From Naegleria gruberi (taxonomy: Eukaryota): 64,000 nucleotides of DNA. Shown here one piece after another: positions 22,056 to 64,000 of the stretch. The stretch lies in the NCBI GenBank assembly GCA_000004985.1, contig GG738887.1; one strand, 5' to 3'. Position 1 is the first letter of the stretch. Each line of letters starts with the position of its first letter. The notes under the pieces were generated by a model. The model was not told the DNA's origin and did no database searches. It saw only the letters and a list, made by a program, of their open reading frames with translations. The translations under genes and the position numbers were made by a program.

Positions 22056-24867
22056 TTACTTGACTGAAGAGTAGGTGTTGATTTTTCCATCAAAGGAACA
22101 GCTCAATAAAGTAGTAGAATTTTTAAATTTAACATCAGAAACAACATCTGAATGATATCCAATAATTTTCTCAATGCACTTTTCAGATGTTGTCAAATCA
22201 TAAAGGTACACACATCGATCTTCACTTCCACAAGCAATGTATCGCATACAAGGGCTTATAGCATTTCCAATGGAATGGATCGAATTCTTATGTTGACTAT
22301 ATCTTCTAATTGGATCTTGTTGCCTTGCATCCCACAGCTTTACACATCCATCAACGGAGGAAGTAAGGAAAAAGTTGATCGAATCGCTAGTGGCATTCGG
22401 AGAATTATTTAGAGAAATGGTATGAATTGGTCTTTCATGGGCATTTTCAATTGATCTTACTACTGTATCTTTGCAAACGTCATAAATCTCCAAAGTTTTA
22501 CTAGAATATCCAAGTAAAATATAATTTGACAAGTAGGAATTTGGACATGTTAGGGCTGTAATCTTTTGGGCCTGTCTGCTTTCGAAAACATGACCAAGTT
22601 TGTACTTGTGATTATCTACTTGTCTGTTTAAGAATCAATTGATTAGATGAGTAAATATGATATTAAACATACTTTTTCAAATACTTTTCATCAGAGTTTG
22701 TACTCTTGTGAATATAGTACTTGTAAATATACATCTTATTAGAGCTCGAAAGGACGGTAAATCTATCTTGATGGAAGAAACTTGCATTATTTACACTCGA
22801 TTTGAAAATTTGCTCTGGTCTCTTGTTTTCCTCAGAGGTTGTACTCTTAATATTTCCCAAAATACTCTTAAAATTAATAGCTGGTTCAATTCCATTCTTT
22901 CCATTTTTCCAAATTGTTGCCGTATTGTCAGAGCTTGATGTTAAAATTAATTTTGATGAGAGTGTCCAATTGATTGAATTGACAGCAACAGAATGTTTCT
23001 CAAGTGGTACTCCCTTGTTCTTGTTTGATAGAGGAAGTTTAGAAAGCATGCAGAGCCCAGAATTAGATCCTGTTACAATAGATTCCTTATTGGGGGAAAT
23101 AGACATGCATAGAATTGGAGAGTTGTGAACTCGGAGCTCTGATGAAAGATTAATTGGAGGTTTTTCAAAACTCGGAGTGACAAGTTCTTTGGTCGTTGTT
23201 GTTTTCTTAATTGTAGATGAGGTAGATGATGAGGAAGAGGAGGTGGGTTTTTTCTTCAAGTGAGCAGGAACAAATGGTGCTTCTGAATAACCTGAAGATT
23301 TGATTCTTGTGGAAAAAGTTGATGGCTTGTCAACAAGTGCTTTGGTCTTTTTCTGAGGTGTTGGAGTAACCTTAACTAGTGTTCCTCTCAAATAATTGGG
23401 CAGTTCATCTGTATGAGTCATGGAAATGACGTCTCCTTCAATTTTAGTCTGCTTTGGTTTTAGGATGGAATCTGGAATTTCATTCTTCCTCTCGATGGTC
23501 ATAGATTGATGGTTAATATCCATGACATAGATATATGGTTGAAAGGCACTAGCTGCCACCAAACGTGTACTACATTCCTCAATGAATTGTGCATCAAAAG
23601 AGTGAAACAAGTCCTTGCATTGGTCTGTCACGTTTGCAATATCATACATTCTCTCAATCTCAAAAGATGACAGATCAATATCAACAGCCAATGATTTGGA
23701 GCATATCATTACATAGTCATTGTCATTCTTCGAAAAGAAATTCATCTTGGATGCACAATGTGAATACTCACATAGAGTCAGCTCTTGAGAATCTTCCTCA
23801 GTATCGAATTGTTTTTGAATGAAATTATGTTGCTGTCTCCAAATTGGCTCACTACTAATGACTTCAAATGAGGGTATTGGAGATTTCTCCTCTGGCTTGA
23901 TGAACTTTTTAATCTTCTTGTTGAGGTCAAATTCGTGAAGCAGTTTCACCCAAAGGCACTTTAAACTCTCATCATTTTTCGTCTCGTATATTTGAACTAT
24001 TCCATTACTAAAACCAATCATGAATCTATTCACGCCATATTCCTCACAAACTGAAATAATTGGATACGGTGAGAGAACTCCTGATTTGTACAATACTTTC
24101 CTCTCATAAATATCCCATATCTTAATTACAATAGAAACTTTCAATCAGAATTATCAAATATTGAACACACAAACCTTAAAAGTTCTATCTTCGGAAACAC
24201 TAATGATACAATGTTGTAAATGTCTCAAAAACAAAACCTCAGTCACGGGAGATTGATGCCCCTCCAAGCTCAGTATCACCTTTGCCAGTTCTATATGATA
24301 AATTAATATAGAATCTTCCAATCCAATATACAACAATTCATCGTTATCGCTAAACTTTACAAATGAAACATTTCCAACATTTGATCCAATCACCACTCCA
24401 TCATCCTGAAATCCATCCCGATATGCAAGAACATTCCACAACTTTACACAAGAACTGGATGCTGAACATAACATTTCAGATTTTCGATTTCCAAAGCAAA
24501 CACAACTAATCGGATCTTCCTTTTCATGAGGCAGTATCACAATTGGCTCCAAATCATCATCTATAACAGGTGTCAATACAAGGGCTGCCTCATCCACCTC
24601 GTCGTCATCCCCCAATTCTTGTTTGATTCTTGTATTATTTGATTTTCTGATAACATCATTGCTTCCACTACTACAACCCGATAACATGACATTCCAAATC
24701 AATACTTTTCCTGTCGATTCACCTCCAGCCACCAACATTTGAGAGGAAGTAGACCTCGAAATGGCCACACTCGTAATGTTTGTTCTCGGAGTTGATCCTT
24801 TCAGTATGCTTACTAATTGATGTTTCTTCATTTTTTTAAAGTTGTAGAATGGGTATGGAGGGAACAT
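22056..24867 (-). CDS. WD40-repeat protein, about 902 aa, 3 exons; complement(join(22056..22623,22673..24120,24175..24867))
   Basis: Intron 1 has a GTTTGT donor after ...DRTFK and a ttaag acceptor, giving ...DRTFK|IWDIYERK (54 nt, phase 0). Intron 2 has a GTATGT donor after ...YLK(aa) and an aaacag acceptor, giving ...YLKKQVDNHKYKLGHVFESRQAQKITALTCPNSYLSNYILLGYSSK (49 nt, phase 2). WD signatures include GKVLIWNV, IKIWDI, CVKLWDAR and DRCVYLYDL. Confidence 0.65.
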
Positions 24868-25095
24868 ATAATTTCATAATACAACAATCATTTATGGGGA
24901 TTGGTGATGAATTTGCTGGACTATCATGAATTATCATGTATTGAGATGATTAATACACATTGAGAGTTGACAATATCGGAATAACATGATATAATAATTA
25001 TTGTTTTTTTAATAAAATTAACAAAATTTGAAATTAAATTTCTACTACTACATATACTATTATTCGATTAATCCTAAAATTTGTTGTGATAGCAC

Positions 25096-25770
25096 TTAAT
25101 CAGACTTTTGCTTTTGATTGGCCAAATCAACAATTTGGTTATTAGCATACATATAGACAACATATGGCAAAGCAGTAGGAATGAGAGACAAGATGAAGAA
25201 GACGATCCAATCACCAACGTGGGAAGCGTGCTTTCTATCATATTCAGCTTGAGTCATGACTGGAATAGCTGGCAAAACGTTACTCTTAGAGATGAGCTTC
25301 AATGACTTTTCGTCCTTTTCAGCAGCTGGAGCCAATCTGTAAGTGGCCAAAGCATGTTGAGTATTAATTTCACCAACACTCTTTGGAACAATAGTATACT
25401 TGTAAGAGACACGGTCATTTGGAGCAACCTTTTCAAAACTAGCCTTGGTTTCACCTTCAGCAAGTTCGAATTGAGCTTCTGGCCATTCATTGTCCTTAAC
25501 ATCAATATCATAAGCAGTTTCTTCACCAACATTGATAACAGTGATCGTGAAAGTAATATTAGTATTGACGATTGGTTCGGCTGGAGAAACACTCTTGTGG
25601 AGGAAAAGTCTTACATTGTTTTGTTGAGTTGTTGTTGTTGTGGTAGTAGATGTTTCATCGACAGGGGTGGCTGTAATGTCTTCATCTTGAGCCAAAACAG
25701 ATGTTATTGTGCACAAGGCGAACAAAATGGCCAAAATAACGGCGAGAGAGAATTTCAAAGACTTGTTCAT
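25096..25770 (-). CDS. Translocon-associated protein subunit beta (TRAP-beta/SSR-beta) homolog, 224 aa
   Basis: It has a signal peptide, a lumenal domain (LFLHKSVSPAEPIVNTNITFTITVINVGEETAYDIDVKDNEWP), a C-terminal TM and a short tail (GDWIVFFILSLIPTALPYVVYMY). Length and layout match my recall of SSR2. Confidence 0.7.
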   Translation of the reverse strand: MNKSLKFSLAVILAILFALCTITSVLAQDEDITATPVDETSTTTTTTTQQNNVRLFLHKSVSPAEPIVNTNITFTITVINVGEETAYDIDVKDNEWPEAQFELAEGETKASFEKVAPNDRVSYKYTIVPKSVGEINTQHALATYRLAPAAEKDEKSLKLISKSNVLPAIPVMTQAEYDRKHASHVGDWIVFFILSLIPTALPYVVYMYANNQIVDLANQKQKSD

Positions 25771-26109
25771 TTTTTTTTAAAAAAGACCTGCTGATGATCA
25801 TGCAGTCAAGCTACAGAGCAATGCTGTGAGGTGTGAAATTGTAAACGCAGCAAGTCTTTCAGCTGAAAAAACGCACGTCATGCTCACAAGCTGGCTTGCG
25901 AACAAAAAAATCATGACAACATAATTCTTCGACTCACAATGATAATCATATAAGGATGATTGGATAGGATACCAATAATGGATTGAAAACAAGGATATCT
26001 AGGAATATACAAGTATTACAGGATAATAATATTATTATTGGACAAGTACTTCCGAAGTGATGAAAAAGAATAAAAATCAAAGATTATAATTTCATGTGTT
26101 TATCAAAAT

Positions 26110-28236
26110 TTAAAAGCTCTTCAAAGAGGATTCCATCAAGTTTTGCAATCTATTGACCATTGATCTTGGATCATCCAATAAACCGGCACTGATGAGAGCA
26201 TTATCAAAGATTTGTTCAGCAACAAGCTTGGCCAAATCTGGATTAGCTGACTTGGCATTGAAGAGTTTCATGATGAGTGGATGGCGAGGATTGATTTCAA
26301 CTTGTTGTGGAGAGAGGGCAATATCTTGATTTTGCAATTTACGAATCATTCTGAGGGAGGCATTTTCTGGATTCTTAATGACAGCTGGAGTTGTTGAGAG
26401 ACGCTTAGAGATCTTGGCAGATGAAACCTTATCCTTCAATGAGGTTTGGAACCATTCACACAATTCCTTAGATTGAATTTCAGAGAGTTCATTTTCACCA
26501 GATGTCTTGTCAGCTTCATCATCTTCCAATTCAGCTCTATCAATGGCCTTAGTTTCCTTACCATTGAAATAACCAATTGAACCAAAGACAAAGTCATCAG
26601 GTCCATCATAACCGAACAAGACTTCGATACCCTTCTTCTTGAAAACTTCAAAGTATGGAGAGTTTTCGGCATATTCTCTAGTTGGAGCAATGAGGTAGTA
26701 AATTGTCTTTTGTTCAGTTCCCATTCTGTTAATATATTCTTCCAATGTTGTCTTTTCACCCTTTGGTAAGGCAGATGATTCGTACATGAGCAATTTGGCA
26801 GCTTCATCCTTATACATGTAATCAGTGACAACACCTTCCTTAATGAACTTGTTGAACTTTTCATAGAAACTAATGTACTTTTCACGATCTTGCTTCATCA
26901 TGTCATTGAAGAATTTGGTAATTCTCTTAACGAGGACAGATTTAATCTTTTGAATGAGTGGAGAATCTTGCAAGTGTTCTCTGGAAATGTTCAATGGTAA
27001 ATCTTCAGAGTCAACAACACCCTTCAAGAATCTCAACCAATCTGGGAGAATATCTGGATGCTTGGCACGAATCAAAACTCTTCTACTGTGAACATTGACA
27101 CCAGGTTCCATCTTACCCATACCCAATGATTCAGTGTGGTGATCTGGGACGTAGAACAAGGCATTCATATTCAATGGAATATCCAAGTTAAAGTGGAGAA
27201 TATAGAGTGGGTTTCCACCATAGTGTGAAAGATACTTGTAGAATTCTTGATGTTCTTCAGCAGTGACAGAGTTCTTGCTCTTCAACCAGACAGCATCAAG
27301 AGTATTGACCTTGGCACCGTTCAAAATGATTGGATAAGAGACAAAGTTACTGTACTTTTGAATAATCTTTTGAACAGTATCCTTGAAAGAGAATTCCTTT
27401 TCATTCTTCTTCAAATAAATGACAATCTTTGTACCTCTGGCAACTCCTTCAGCTTCGGAAATTGTGTAATTTCCTTCACCAGTACTTTCCCAACAATATC
27501 CAGGTTGACCTTTGATAGCAGATCTAGTATAAATACGGACCTTATCAGCAACCATGAATGTACTGTAAAAACCAACACCAAATTGACCAATAATGTTGGA
27601 TGTAGCTTCACCCTTATCGGAAGCTTCCTTAAGTTGTTTAACAAAGGCACGAGAACCACTGTGAGCAATAGTACCAATATTCTTGATTAATTCTTCCTTG
27701 GACATACCAATACCAGAGTCTTGAATGACGAAAATATTATTCTTATCATCACAAGAAATTTGGACAGATAATTCCTTTGAAGGATCATCAACCTTGTCTG
27801 GTGAAACTTGATTCATTCTTCTAACCTTTTCCAAAGCATCGGAAGCATTTGAAATTAATTCTCTGATGAAGACTTCCTTGTCAGTATAGAGAGCAGAAGC
27901 AACAATGTGTAAAAGTTGTTTAGTTTCAGTTTCAAAAGTCTTATTTTCCTTGGCACCAACAATGTGTTCAGTTTCTCTAATAATATTTTCTTCCTTGAGT
28001 TCATTGACTTCGGCATCCTCAAAAACATCATCATCAATAACATCCTTCTTTTCATTTCTAACAAATAGTTGTGATGAGAAATTAGCAATCAATTGTTGTT
28101 GTTGTTGATATGATGAACAAGAATTCTTTGAAAGAACGGAAGAAGAAGATGGCAATGCTGATGATGAACATCTCACAGCAGCAGAACGCTTTGAGACGAG
28201 CGAACGGACGATTTTACCAGAGTTTCTGCTCAACAT
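26110..28236 (-). CDS. trap1: TRAP1, mitochondrial Hsp90-family chaperone (about 708 aa)
   Basis: Hsp90 N-domain motifs are present: ETKQLLHIVASALYTDKEVFIRELISNASDALEK, IGQFGVGFYSTFMVADKV and GTIAHSG. The S/R-rich N-terminal presequence fits a mitochondrial paralog. Start aaaaaaaaATG at 28236 (the track adds 5 codons from an alternative start). Confidence 0.88.
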   Translation of the reverse strand: MLSRNSGKIVRSLVSKRSAAVRCSSSALPSSSSVLSKNSCSSYQQQQQLIANFSSQLFVRNEKKDVIDDDVFEDAEVNELKEENIIRETEHIVGAKENKTFETETKQLLHIVASALYTDKEVFIRELISNASDALEKVRRMNQVSPDKVDDPSKELSVQISCDDKNNIFVIQDSGIGMSKEELIKNIGTIAHSGSRAFVKQLKEASDKGEATSNIIGQFGVGFYSTFMVADKVRIYTRSAIKGQPGYCWESTGEGNYTISEAEGVARGTKIVIYLKKNEKEFSFKDTVQKIIQKYSNFVSYPIILNGAKVNTLDAVWLKSKNSVTAEEHQEFYKYLSHYGGNPLYILHFNLDIPLNMNALFYVPDHHTESLGMGKMEPGVNVHSRRVLIRAKHPDILPDWLRFLKGVVDSEDLPLNISREHLQDSPLIQKIKSVLVKRITKFFNDMMKQDREKYISFYEKFNKFIKEGVVTDYMYKDEAAKLLMYESSALPKGEKTTLEEYINRMGTEQKTIYYLIAPTREYAENSPYFEVFKKKGIEVLFGYDGPDDFVFGSIGYFNGKETKAIDRAELEDDEADKTSGENELSEIQSKELCEWFQTSLKDKVSSAKISKRLSTTPAVIKNPENASLRMIRKLQNQDIALSPQQVEINPRHPLIMKLFNAKSANPDLAKLVAEQIFDNALISAGLLDDPRSMVNRLQNLMESSLKSF

Positions 28237-28981
28237 TTTTTTTTCAATCAAAAACTGAAGCTATTGATTGAAGATGGAACGGAAAGTGTTGTGCTTCCGA
28301 TCCAGAGCCATGTTTGCTTTCTTAATTGCTATTAAATGGAATAAGAAATTCCGATTAGTATTAATGAAAGTAGGTTGGGATTTTAAATTGATTGAGGGAG
28401 GTTGAATGATATATTTATTTGCTACTGATTGAGGAAGCACAGTTAGAAAACAATAGAGTTCTTCCTTAATATAATCAGTAACATTGAAAAGATACTATTG
28501 TTAATTCAAACAAGGAACATAAATTTCAAAGCTCAACTGAAACATCCTTTTAGTTAAATGAAGTTATTGCTAAGTGAGGTCTTCAACTTGAAATGAGATA
28601 TATTGTGTGGGTTTAACATAAAGGAATGGTTTCATTATCTTCCCCATGATCTGGAGATTATTCAATAGACCTGTTAAAGAGATCAAATCTCCATAATAAG
28701 ATCCAGAATCTTAAAGATGAAAATTCCGCTTCCTATCCAGATTTTCCGCACAACCACACAATCACAATCTTTGTTATCATTCTCACCTCAGCAGAAGTAA
28801 CAACAAATCATCAACTGTACCTCAGCAGTAACAAGAAAAACCATTTGAAAAAAAAATTGTTTAAGGTCGTGCTCGTCATTATTGTGCATGAAGAAAGTGG
28901 CCATTGTATTGTCATGTTGGTGGCTCTTGTTCATCGCTTGGAATTGCATGCACGAGTGGCTAGTATGGAAGATAACTGTTC

Positions 28982-29338
28982 ATGGCCAGCAACTCGTTGT
29001 ACCAAGGTTTGAATGTTCGTGATGCTAATGGTCGTGTGATACGTTCATTGGGACCTGAGACTGCAGTTACTGTCTATGGTATTATGGTTAAGGATGGAGG
29101 AAGATGGGCAAAGATTGGAACCAATGAATATGTTTCTGCTGATTATTTAAAAATGTCATGTGGATGTGGTGGAGGATACAATAATCAAGATCCAACACTA
29201 CCAGATAAGCTTCAATCACCCAAGCAAAAACTGGTGTACCGCCACTGGTTTCAGTCTGTGTTAACTTTTCCGCCACTTACTTCGGATACATCCCAACATC
29301 AGTCCGCCACAGGCAATAAGCAAGAATCGCTACACTAG
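28982..29338 (+). CDS. ORF with a bacterial-type SH3 (SH3b/SH3_3-like) domain followed by a CGCGGGY motif; 3' part may be read-through or a pseudogene
   Basis: LNVRDANGRVIRSLGPETAVTVYGIMVKDGGRWAKIGTNEYVSADYL fits the SH3b pattern (NVRSGP....G....V......GW.K......GWV...YL). The segment is GC-richer than the surrounding spacer. A signal-peptide-like ORF (MKKVAIVLSCWWLLFIAWNC, ATG 28888) lies just upstream in another frame. Confidence 0.4.
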   Translation: MASNSLYQGLNVRDANGRVIRSLGPETAVTVYGIMVKDGGRWAKIGTNEYVSADYLKMSCGCGGGYNNQDPTLPDKLQSPKQKLVYRHWFQSVLTFPPLTSDTSQHQSATGNKQESLH

Positions 29339-29999
29339 TTTTTAATATGACATTTCAATCAAAAAATCAAATGGTTTATTACATATTGACATGTGACATT
29401 AATCCAAACAAGATTATTTCAACATTCAAAATTCAATCAATAATTGAATGAAATTTATCTCATTTGTAAATAAACAATCGTTTCCCAGTAGCAACATAAC
29501 AATATCCAGTTATTTCATCAATTGTTAATCCAATAATGTCACTACCAACGACTTTCGAATTGATTTTTTTGCATTTGCTAGAAAGTTGAATGAAAGACAC
29601 AGAGAAGGTTATAAGAAATGGGGTGGTAAGTATCGTATGTATTTATTCGTGAATTTTTTGTTCGATTCCATACGAATTGTTTCAATTTTGCAAAGTATGA
29701 TAATATTTAGACTCCAATTTGATTGAATCAAAATTCTCGAACTTCATTGTAAAACAAATCCTATGTACTTGAAGAAAATCTCAAAAAAGAAAGTATTATT
29801 TCAGAAATTGGACATTTTGGATTTCCCATTTTGTTGATTTACCATTTAAGTAGGTTGAGTTAGACCAATTTAAACAAATCAATGTGAAACTATACCCAAT
29901 CAAAAACAATCAAAACAAATTGATATAATTCAATCACGCTTTTCAAACTAACTTTCCAATCAACTTATCAACTCTCCAACTCTAACTCTATACGAAACC

Positions 30000-30449
30000 A
30001 TGAAAAAGATACTCTTCATAGTCCTTGTATGCATCTTGGCTGCTCTCTTCTTGAATGCTGATAAGGCAGATGGTCAATTGACATACAGCTATCGTTATGC
30101 CTACAGCTACCCTTCCACCTATGGTTACTCATATCCATCTAGTTACGGATACGGCTATCCTTCAACCTATGGTTACTCATATCCATATAGTTACGGATAT
30201 GGCTACCCTTCAACCTACGGATACGGCTACCCTTCAACCTACGGATACTCATATCCATCCTCCTATAGCTATCGTTACGCCTACAGCTACCCTTCCACCT
30301 ATGGTTACTCATATCCTTATAGTTACGGATACGGCTACCCTTCCACCTATGGTTACTCATATCCATCTAGTTATTCTTATGGTTATCCTTACTCATATGG
30401 TGGCTATGGATATCCTTCTTCATATGCTTATTCATACAGATATTGGTAA
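30000..30449 (+). CDS. Secreted Tyr/Gly/Ser/Pro-rich repeat protein (149 aa): signal peptide plus about 20 tandem Y(G/S)Y(S/G)YPS(T/S) units
   Basis: The start is accATGAAAAAG. The hydrophobic leader is MKKILFIVLVCILAALFLNA. The mature region is almost entirely YGYSYPSSYGYGYPSTYGYSYPYSYGYGYPSTYGYGYPS... with a higher-order duplication of a roughly 70-aa block; it ends ...YAYSYRYW. Confidence 0.65.
   Translation: MKKILFIVLVCILAALFLNADKADGQLTYSYRYAYSYPSTYGYSYPSSYGYGYPSTYGYSYPYSYGYGYPSTYGYGYPSTYGYSYPSSYSYRYAYSYPSTYGYSYPYSYGYGYPSTYGYSYPSSYSYGYPYSYGGYGYPSSYAYSYRYW
30067..30440 (+). repeat. 18/21-nt coding minisatellite (tatggttactcatatccatctagttacgga-type units) underlying the Y-rich protein
   Basis: A direct tandem repetition of tacggatacggctacccttcaacc / tatggttactcatatcca units is visible across the whole block. 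Confidence 0.8.
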
Positions 30450-61185: not shown

Positions 61186-61235
61186 NNNNNNNNNNNNNNN
61201 NNNNNNNNNNNNNNNNNNNNNNNNNNNNNNNNNNN
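61186..61235. other. Assembly gap (50 N)
   Basis: Run of n characters. Confidence 1.
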
Positions 61236-62364: not shown

Positions 62365-64000
62365 NNNNNNNNNNNNNNNNNNNNNNNNNNNNNNNNNNNN
62401 NNNNNNNNNNNNNNNNNNNNNNNNNNNNNNNNNNNNNNNNNNNNNNNNNNNNNNNNNNNNNNNNNNNNNNNNNNNNNNNNNNNNNNNNNNNNNNNNNNNN
62501 NNNNNNNNNNNNNNNNNNNNNNNNNNNNNNNNNNNNNNNNNNNNNNNNNNNNNNNNNNNNNNNNNNNNNNNNNNNNNNNNNNNNNNNNNNNNNNNNNNNN
62601 NNNNNNNNNNNNNNNNNNNNNNNNNNNNNNNNNNNNNNNNNNNNNNNNNNNNNNNNNNNNNNNNNNNNNNNNNNNNNNNNNNNNNNNNNNNNNNNNNNNN
62701 NNNNNNNNNNNNNNNNNNNNNNNNNNNNNNNNNNNNNNNNNNNNNNNNNNNNNNNNNNNNNNNNNNNNNNNNNNNNNNNNNNNNNNNNNNNNNNNNNNNN
62801 NNNNNNNNNNNNNNNNNNNNNNNNNNNNNNNNNNNNNNNNNNNNNNNNNNNNNNNNNNNNNNNNNNNNNNNNNNNNNNNNNNNNNNNNNNNNNNNNNNNN
62901 NNNNNNNNNNNNNNNNNNNNNNNNNNNNNNNNNNNNNNNNNNNNNNNNNNNNNNNNNNNNNNNNNNNNNNNNNNNNNNNNNNNNNNNNNNNNNNNNNNNN
63001 NNNNNNNNNNNNNNNNNNNNNNNNNNNNNNNNNNNNNNNNNNNNNNNNNNNNNNNNNNNNNNNNNNNNNNNNNNNNNNNNNNNNNNNNNNNNNNNNNNNN
63101 NNNNNNNNNNNNNNNNNNNNNNNNNNNNNNNNNNNNNNNNNNNNNNNNNNNNNNNNNNNNNNNNNNNNNNNNNNNNNNNNNNNNNNNNNNNNNNNNNNNN
63201 NNNNNNNNNNNNNNNNNNNNNNNNNNNNNNNNNNNNNNNNNNNNNNNNNNNNNNNNNNNNNNNNNNNNNNNNNNNNNNNNNNNNNNNNNNNNNNNNNNNN
63301 NNNNNNNNNNNNNNNNNNNNNNNNNNNNNNNNNNNNNNNNNNNNNNNNNNNNNNNNNNNNNNNNNNNNNNNNNNNNNNNNNNNNNNNNNNNNNNNNNNNN
63401 NNNNNNNNNNNNNNNNNNNNNNNNNNNNNNNNNNNNNNNNNNNNNNNNNNNNNNNNNNNNNNNNNNNNNNNNNNNNNNNNNNNNNNNNNNNNNNNNNNNN
63501 NNNNNNNNNNNNNNNNNNNNNNNNNNNNNNNNNNNNNNNNNNNNNNNNNNNNNNNNNNNNNNNNNNNNNNNNNNNNNNNNNNNNNNNNNNNNNNNNNNNN
63601 NNNNNNNNNNNNNNNNNNNNNNNNNNNNNNNNNNNNNNNNNNNNNNNNNNNNNNNNNNNNNNNNNNNNNNNNNNNNNNNNNNNNNNNNNNNNNNNNNNNN
63701 NNNNNNNNNNNNNNNNNNNNNNNNNNNNNNNNNNNNNNNNNNNNNNNNNNNNNNNNNNNNNNNNNNNNNNNNNNNNNNNNNNNNNNNNNNNNNNNNNNNN
63801 NNNNNNNNNNNNNNNNNNNNNNNNNNNNNNNNNNNNNNNNNNNNNNNNNNNNNNNNNNNNNNNNNNNNNNNNNNNNNNNNNNNNNNNNNNNNNNNNNNNN
63901 NNNNNNNNNNNNNNNNNNNNNNNNNNNNNNNNNNNNNNNNNNNNNNNNNNNNNNNNNNNNNNNNNNNNNNNNNNNNNNNNNNNNNNNNNNNNNNNNNNNN
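62365..64000. other. Assembly gap / unsequenced to the end of the window (1636 N)
   Basis: Run of n characters from 62365 to the window end. Confidence 1.

Follow-up and report, generated by a model that had tools for sequence, protein, structure and literature searches.

The stretch of Naegleria gruberi DNA analysed here (64,000 nucleotides (nt) of contig GG738887.1, hereafter the window) is AT-rich eukaryotic DNA of 34.8% GC with long, mostly uninterrupted open reading frames (ORFs), and the question it raises is what a short ORF on its plus strand at 28982-29338, with a domain typical of bacteria, represents. This ORF of 118 amino acids (aa) is 100% identical to the N. gruberi "predicted protein" NAEGRDRAFT_70989 (XP_002673929.1, EFC41185.1, UniProt D2VPU4), located on a 508-kb scaffold, and its first 60 residues form a bacterial-type SH3 domain (SH3b, Pfam SH3_3). 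A sequence-only reading of the region had proposed a laterally acquired, secreted peptidoglycan-binding protein that was either frameshifted or contained an unresolved intron. Having compared the locus with its relatives, we think it likely that the segment at 28827-29624 is a paralog that has decayed and been rearranged, in other words a unitary pseudogene or relic, from a Naegleria family of secreted proteins that combine SH3b with a glycoside hydrolase family 108 (GH108) domain. That the ancestor was an SH3b-GH108 gene, that the catalytic domain is lost and that a further fragment lies downstream at 29571-29624 formed no part of the earlier reading.

The SH3b domain and its relatives

The domain (LNVR...YLKMSC) occupies 29009-29161 on the plus strand in frame 2, is intact and in frame with the ORF, and is recovered by Pfam, a family profile, AlphaFold2 and Foldseek. 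Residues 14-57 match SH3_3 (PF08239) and no other Pfam family (E=7e-4, 20.2 bits, under the gathering score of 27), the domain taken alone scores 22.7 bits, likewise under that score, and the eukaryotic families SH3_1, SH3_2 and SH3_9 give no match to the ORF at E<=1; an NCBIfam search of the ORF returned nothing meaningful. The SH3_3 call is therefore weak on the ORF alone, although by sequence comparison it appears solid through the relatives of the ORF, because these are themselves SH3_3 members: all nine of the aligned family domains match SH3_3 (best E 9e-10), two of the related proteins, P0007 and P0005, scoring 31 and 27.0 bits, and a profile built from the nine domains matches the Clostridium perfringens SH3_3 structures at E 1e-4. 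The family profile in turn scores the SH3b of the locus at 62.5 bits (hmmsearch).

A word-indexed protein search with the ORF returned only the ORF itself, and an exhaustive HMMER search over 1.84 billion representatives was needed for the relatives to appear. It gave 22 matches, of which the best are Naegleria proteins at E 1e-26 to 1e-8 (1e-26 for P0002, about 1e-8 for P0005, P0006 and P0007), and below these stand bacterial multi-SH3_3 wall hydrolases of phage-lysozyme, peptidase C39 and YkuD architectures at E 1e-11 to 1e-4. As far as this match list goes, it points to a place for the domain within the Naegleria clade.

The AlphaFold2 model is a seven-strand beta fold over residues 3-58, with a predicted local distance difference test score (pLDDT) of 77-88 over residues 11-50 and below 50 for residues 59-118, so that the tail of the ORF is predicted to be disordered. 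The best Foldseek matches to the model (probability 0.96-1.0, with E-values that are weak even at the top, 7e-3 or worse) are bacterial SH3b and S-layer wall-binding domains, the SH3-like module of a fungal muramidase and Trichomonas NlpC2, and eukaryotic SH3 domains rank lower, at 0.35-0.75. The bacterial type that had been assigned to the domain from its sequence is thus borne out. In profile and predicted fold it resembles the C. perfringens SH3_3 structures 2kyb, 2kt8 and 2krs, the lysostaphin SH3b (5leo) and the wall-binding domains of phage endolysins; it differs from bacterial SH3b domains in scoring only 20-23 bits on its own (<27) and in being encoded in a eukaryotic nuclear genome, and any wall binding by it is putative.

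Fragments of a longer gene

The closest relatives of the ORF are exclusively Naegleria SH3b-GH108 proteins, and alignment of the locus to four intact paralog genes (L001 8001-9144, L002 8001-9216, L003 335-1327 and L004 1561-2605) places recognisable pieces of such a gene on both sides of the SH3b domain. The former 5' end appears to lie at 28827-28910 (plus strand), where an A-rich leader resembles that of an intact N. gruberi paralog and an ATG stands at 28888 in frame 1: 28827-28856 matches L003 298-325 at 80% (blastn), and a global alignment of 28800-28982 with the L003 5' region gives z=5.7 against shuffles. The ATG, which may be the ancestral start, opens a signal-peptide-like ORF of 44 codons (MKKVAIVLSCWWLLFIAWNC, 28888-29022) beginning 94 nt upstream of the ATG of the 118-aa ORF. 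The sequence-only reading had drawn attention to this upstream ORF in another frame, correctly in that both belong to the same former gene.

Between the two start codons, 28911-29003 (plus strand) reads VMLVALVHRLELHARVASMEDNCSWPATRCT in frame 0. This reading contains VMLVALVHRLEL, ends in NCSWPATRCT and follows the paralogs in collinear order through their signal-peptide core, linker and WPxTRCT motif; the assignment comes from tblastn (WPETRCT/WPATRCT at 28983-29003), from an hmmsearch match to positions 51-70 of the family profile and from DNA alignments. Frame 0 differs both from that of the ATG at 28888 (frame 1) and from that of the SH3b domain (frame 2). The 5' end appears to have been disrupted a second time, by a lesion whose exact nature is conjectural, because frame 0 has no ATG upstream of 28914 and the sole ATG opening the signal-peptide-like ORF is in frame 1.

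The step from frame 0 to frame 2 can be placed precisely. Pairwise and five-sequence DNA alignments reveal that 10 bp present in each of the four intact genes are deleted here, with the junction at 29008-29010 (plus strand) between the WPATRCT and LNVR codons: the window has ACCAAGGTT directly followed by TGAATGTT, where L003 has ACCAATGTT, then GATAATGCAT, then TGAATGTT, and the deletion is flanked by 14/14 identical bases. As a result the SH3b domain has moved out of frame with the N-terminal part, and frame 0 terminates at a TGA at 29010-29012. The frameshift that had been suspected is therefore real. It also follows from the alignment that the annotated start at 28982 is an out-of-frame tc-ATG-g within the ancestral Ser-Trp-Pro codons TCA TGG CCA, and that codons 1-8 of the ORF (MASNSLYQ) correspond, in a shifted frame, to the ancestral S-W-P-A-T-R-C-T codons. 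Because the start is read out of frame, the Cys found before the domain in each of the eight aligned intact-paralog copies, one of the conserved Cys residues that bracket SH3b in the intact proteins, falls outside the ORF.

Downstream of the domain, GGYNNQDP at 29170-29195 (plus strand) is probably homologous, by its sequence, to the GGYNGQDP that follows the GH108 core of the intact genes (blastn: 29170-29195 against L003 1162-1187, 85%; 29171-29191 against L004 2441-2461, 90%). Since it stands directly after KMSC, some 464 nt would have been lost between 29161 and 29170, and with them the linker, the family intron and all of the catalytic core; the conserved intron site of the family falls inside this segment. 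No match to the GH108 core was found in any frame of 28400-30100 with the family hidden Markov model (HMM) and filters off, nor across the whole window by tblastn at E<=10, and of the region after the core only about 26 residues are kept.

There follow about 375 nt of unrelated sequence (29196-29570, plus strand), which supply residues 72-118 of the ORF and its TAG stop and then continue as AT-rich sequence. This segment has no tblastn or hmmsearch match to the family in any frame, only chance blastn matches to the window and the fetched loci with no other copy among them, and no Rfam match, and the exhaustive HMMER search found no homologs of the ORF tail. The possibility that the tail is a tandem duplicate of the C-terminal block (TLPDKLQSPKQKLVYRHW against KAFARQLNERHRQDYLYW) was rejected, as 29195-29254 and 29571-29630 share about 33% DNA identity by eye, which is chance level. 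Three copies of the heptamer CCGCCAC, spread over about 80 nt of the tail (29233-29315), add to the local peak in GC. Of the marks of a processed (retroposed) pseudogene, neither a poly(A) tail nor a flanking duplication was seen on reading the sequence, a dedicated repeat search not having been run.

The C-terminal fragment AFARKLNERHREGYKKWG is stranded beyond this segment at 29571-29624 (plus strand, frame 0), 235 nt downstream of the ORF stop. In the intact genes it corresponds, in collinear order, to ...KAFARQLNERHRQDYLYWG..., with 70% identity by tblastn, a match to family profile positions 271-290 at 14.6 bits, and blastn identities of 74-77% to L001-L004. Downstream of 29624 alignment detects no further family homology, and the last ~26 codons are gone.

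Outside the SH3b domain, then, WPATRCT, GGYNNQDP and AFARKLNERHREGYKKWG occur in family order, the two downstream blocks at 74-90% nucleotide identity, and tblastn, the filter-off family HMM and blastn against the four paralog loci agree on collinear fragments in three frames. No single frame, canonical introns allowed, links signal peptide, SH3b, GH108 and C-terminus. In this copy, with the order of the lesions and the loss of function itself presumed, the start region and the signal-peptide region have lost their common frame, the 10-bp deletion parts both from the SH3b domain, the catalytic core has been lost, unrelated DNA has been inserted, and the C-terminus has been left truncated in another frame. 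The 118-aa ORF would survive by accident, made up of an out-of-frame ATG, an SH3b stretch that stayed open and 47 codons of unrelated sequence, and its product would neither be secreted via the ancestral signal peptide nor hydrolyse peptidoglycan.

The intact Naegleria SH3b-GH108 genes

There are two intact genes each in N. gruberi (NAEGRDRAFT_74668, 313 aa; NAEGRDRAFT_80430, 321 aa) and N. lovaniensis (C9374_004067 and C9374_002860), and at least three loci in N. fowleri (FDP41_009823, with two tandem SH3b domains, FDP41_003618 and FDP41_004685). Their products begin with a hydrophobic signal-like peptide, a linker of about 50 aa, WPxTRCTNV, SH3b and KM(A/S)C, and continue after a second linker with GH108 (PF05838), GGYNGQDPKAFARxLNExHRxDYxxWG and FLxGWLxRAxxRxxYIDNY. 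The GH108 core, matched by P0006 to PF05838 at 46.7 bits, is the best-conserved part of the family, with E147, G148, C150 and N152 among its invariant residues and the invariant Glu within an SEGxCQN motif. In databases these proteins are labelled "TtsA-like glycoside hydrolase family 108 domain-containing" or "SH3b domain-containing", the former being a name that UniProt borrowed from Salmonella TtsA. The intact genes resemble the copy in the window in an SH3b domain 46-57% identical to its own, in 61-77% nucleotide identity over shared blocks and in the collinear motifs WPxTRCT, KM(S/A)C, GGYNxQDP and AFARxLNExHRxxYxxWG; the copy differs from them in lacking an in-frame signal peptide, the GH108 core and the C-terminal ~26 residues, in carrying the 10-bp frameshifting deletion and the 375-nt unrelated insert, and in its non-syntenic position.

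The putative biochemical roles of the intact proteins can be read from their domain families: the signal peptide would send the protein to the secretory or phago-lysosomal route, SH3b would anchor the enzyme on peptidoglycan, and GH108 would cleave the N-acetylmuramic acid-N-acetylglucosamine (MurNAc-GlcNAc) backbone of bacterial prey. The proposal that the ORF originated in a secreted protein directed at peptidoglycan is upheld in that its relatives are secreted SH3b-GH108 muramidases of this kind. Similar pairings of a bacterial-type SH3 wall-binding domain with a wall-cleaving domain in a secreted eukaryotic enzyme are seen in Trichomonas NlpC2 and in fungal muramidases, with the difference that the catalytic families there are NlpC/P60, GH24 and GH184, whereas in Naegleria it is GH108, and that the copy in the window is a non-catalytic remnant. 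The T. vaginalis enzyme was presumably laterally acquired. A muramidase function agrees with the "large arsenal of lysozymes" noted for Naegleria (PMC9928731) and with the description of fungal muramidases bearing SH3-like wall-binding modules (PMC10394673).

The family itself probably has an old, bacterial origin. The intact paralogs match the GH108 N-acetylmuramidase family of phages and bacteria (PF05838), and bacterial relatives of their GH108 part, at about 50% identity, occur on metagenome-assembled genome contigs L005 (348-1085) and L006 (2001-2243), the former of 48.5% GC with a transposase, a histidine-kinase fragment and a thiamine pyrophosphate (TPP) enzyme as bacterial neighbours. 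Family-specific patterns were matched at only 2 loci in 185,579 species genomes, a related gene (P0046) is present in the anaerobic fungus Anaeromyces robustus, and tblastn of the intact paralog P0025 gave no match at E<=1e-3 in 50,697 phage genomes. The introns of the Naegleria genes (51, 79, 157 and 160 nt) are spliceosomal, with GTAAGT or GTATGT donors. Because the bacterial relatives are about 50% identical, the genes have introns and their codon usage is host-like, the family has the look of an inter-domain transfer that is old and by now fully naturalised, its direction and the number of such events being presumptive. As the paralogs are intron-bearing and common to three species, any transfer predates the copy in the window, and the earlier proposal of a lateral acquisition at this locus is not sustained.

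The position of this copy is specific to the N. gruberi lineage. This follows from the absence of family sequence beside the N. fowleri TRAP1 gene, where the adjacency of TRAP1 and the WD40 gene is conserved, and from the absence of flanking genes shared between the window and either N. lovaniensis family locus.

Weighing the explanations

Several observations sit uneasily with decay. The SH3b stretch remains an open frame with a confident predicted fold, and all columns invariant in the nine-sequence domain alignment (the ORF and eight intact copies) are kept, which would mean that decay set in recently or that constraint on the domain persists; 118 codons is long for a chance ORF in an AT-rich genome, although 60 of them are inherited coding sequence. 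GGYNNQDP gives only a short match. The deletion may formally contain a single-base assembly error, whose correction would mend one lesion though not bring back the missing catalytic domain. No second assembly spanning the locus was found by which these features might be seen independently: the only other N. gruberi-like contig (L007), from the ENA metagenome assembly ERZ929261 (PRJEB11402) of a strain 97.5% identical in DNA to the window, corresponds to window positions 24295-28492 in reverse and ends at 28492, about 400 nt short of the relic. That strain also has both intact paralogs (L003 and L004).

It is nevertheless unlikely, in our judgement, that the ORF encodes a functional, lineage-specific mini-protein, that is, a stand-alone SH3b, lacking enzyme and signal peptide, that would serve as a non-catalytic binder of peptidoglycan, or would regulate the intact muramidases or compete with them. 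The 118-codon ORF is intact and is annotated by JGI/NCBI, the conserved core residues and predicted fold just described would suit such a role, and pairwise dN/dS (the ratio of nonsynonymous to synonymous divergence) against the paralogs, at 0.37-0.62, is still below 1. This ratio mostly reflects the long functional history before the lesions, however, and among the intact paralogs it is 0.14-0.53; over about 50 SH3b codons dN is 0.34-0.48 between the relic and the paralogs and 0.18-0.34 among the paralogs at similar dS, which suggests, in this small sample, relaxed constraint on the branch leading to the relic. Its SH3b also has changes at positions conserved in the eight intact copies, with the Pro after LNVRxA missing and V to I, Q/R to E and Q/K to D substitutions. 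A mini-protein would moreover take its start codon and first eight residues from an out-of-frame reading, would lack both the pre-domain Cys and an in-frame signal peptide, and would consist to one half of unrelated sequence that is predicted to be disordered and is without homologs. Neither a search of 5.8 billion protein clusters nor two pattern scans of JGI metagenomes yielded an ortholog or variant, and exact-protein look-ups of the 118-aa ORF and two neighbouring ORFs also gave no match. That the fragment has been kept specifically as a non-secreted stand-alone SH3b, perhaps a cytosolic or phagosome-associated peptidoglycan-binding factor, we regard as improbable; if true, a bacterial module gained by lateral transfer would here be at an early stage of becoming a new eukaryotic gene.

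For an intact, secreted gene whose apparent frameshifts are short unresolved introns or assembly errors, the sequence offers two openings. A 34-nt GT..AG segment at 28956-28989 would link the ORF at 28888 in frame to the SH3b ORF, and a consensus GTAAGT lies at 29626, after the C-terminal fragment. The 34-nt segment, however, is shorter than any family intron and has a GTGGCT donor where the family uses GTAAGT or GTATGT, and its removal would cut out the conserved WPATRC codons; this and other GT..AG combinations were rejected on donor, length and loss of conserved codons. The homologous pieces flanking the deletion lie 3 nt apart, too close for an intron between them, no GT stands at the 29195 boundary, and no splicing scheme provides the absent GH108 core. 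We therefore consider this explanation very improbable, and the unresolved intron that had been put forward as an alternative to a frameshift falls with it. The 3' end, for which no convincing stop context had been seen, closes with a plain TAG at 29336-29338.

We give hardly any credence to a recent, independent gain of a compositionally foreign bacterial or phage SH3b gene. SH3_3 is a bacterial and phage family, the bacterial multi-SH3b hydrolases are matched at the E-values given above, and the base composition of the ORF is unusual in one respect: measured against same-length in-frame windows from 28 long ORFs (GC 0.363 +/- 0.029, GC at third codon positions (GC3) 0.313 +/- 0.060), its total GC of 0.431 is reached by 0.4% of the comparison windows. 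The GC-richer patch of the earlier reading is thus present, but its GC3 of 0.345 is host-like, being reached by 33% of the windows, and the codon-preference score (6.6th percentile) is marginal. The excess of GC comes from the non-homologous tail, which has a GC of 0.46, and from amino-acid composition, not from foreign codon usage; the SH3b segment has GC 0.39 and GC3 0.21, and the two intact N. gruberi paralogs have GC 0.38-0.39 and GC3 0.26-0.29 with a high GC at second codon positions (0.46). Of the CGT, GGT and GCC codons that had been remarked upon as more frequent, CGT indeed makes up three of the five Arg codons, numbers too small to carry meaning. With host-like GC3 in the relic and in the intact paralogs, a recent transfer and the foreign composition claimed for it are unsupported. 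The Naegleria paralogs are by far the nearest relatives, with 46-57% amino-acid and 61-68% nucleotide identity in SH3b and shared flanking motifs, there is no phage match, and the genes around the locus are ordinary eukaryotic ones (TRAP1, TRAP-beta, a split WD40 protein, an NHL-repeat protein, an epimerase and an ABC transporter). A scan for bacterial promoters and terminators, which is not relevant to a eukaryote, showed no enrichment.

Genomic setting and significance

On the left of the relic, the mitochondrial HSP90/TRAP1 gene occupies 26110-28236 on the minus strand as one uninterrupted ORF with its ATG at 28236; a TTG start given for it at 28251 is a tool artefact. The encoded protein is matched at 100% identity by that of the ENA strain, at 81% by that of N. 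fowleri and at 78% by that of Willaertia magna. On the right, an ORF at 30000-30449 (plus strand, 149 aa) has a signal-like N-terminus, MKKILFIVLVCILAALFLNA, and a body made almost entirely of Tyr/Gly/Ser/Pro repeats (YGYSYPSS...), encoded by tandem repeats with a period of 48 nt and 5.9 copies; it has no Pfam match, and its product may be a secreted structural or cyst-wall-like protein. Two runs of N lie far from the relic, a 50-nt assembly gap at 61186-61235 and 1,636 nt of padding or scaffold end at 62365-64000, so that the final ~1.6 kb of the window is without sequence.

Decay of a paralog, the explanation we prefer, has consequences for how the annotation is used. Databases list NAEGRDRAFT_70989 (D2VPU4) as protein-coding, yet it has the appearance of a gene relic and ought to be left out both of the evidence for recent bacterial transfer and of the amoeba's lysozyme arsenal. 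The relic is a decayed member of an already known kind of system, and it shows that the family duplicates and is lost within N. gruberi. The family behind it is the more interesting subject: the intact Naegleria SH3b-GH108 genes are unstudied, no publication naming or discussing them having been found, and several such secreted muramidases have been kept by Naegleria species. The uptake of bacterial wall-degrading enzymes by eukaryotes that feed on bacteria or are exposed to them is a known theme, and the Naegleria family fits it.

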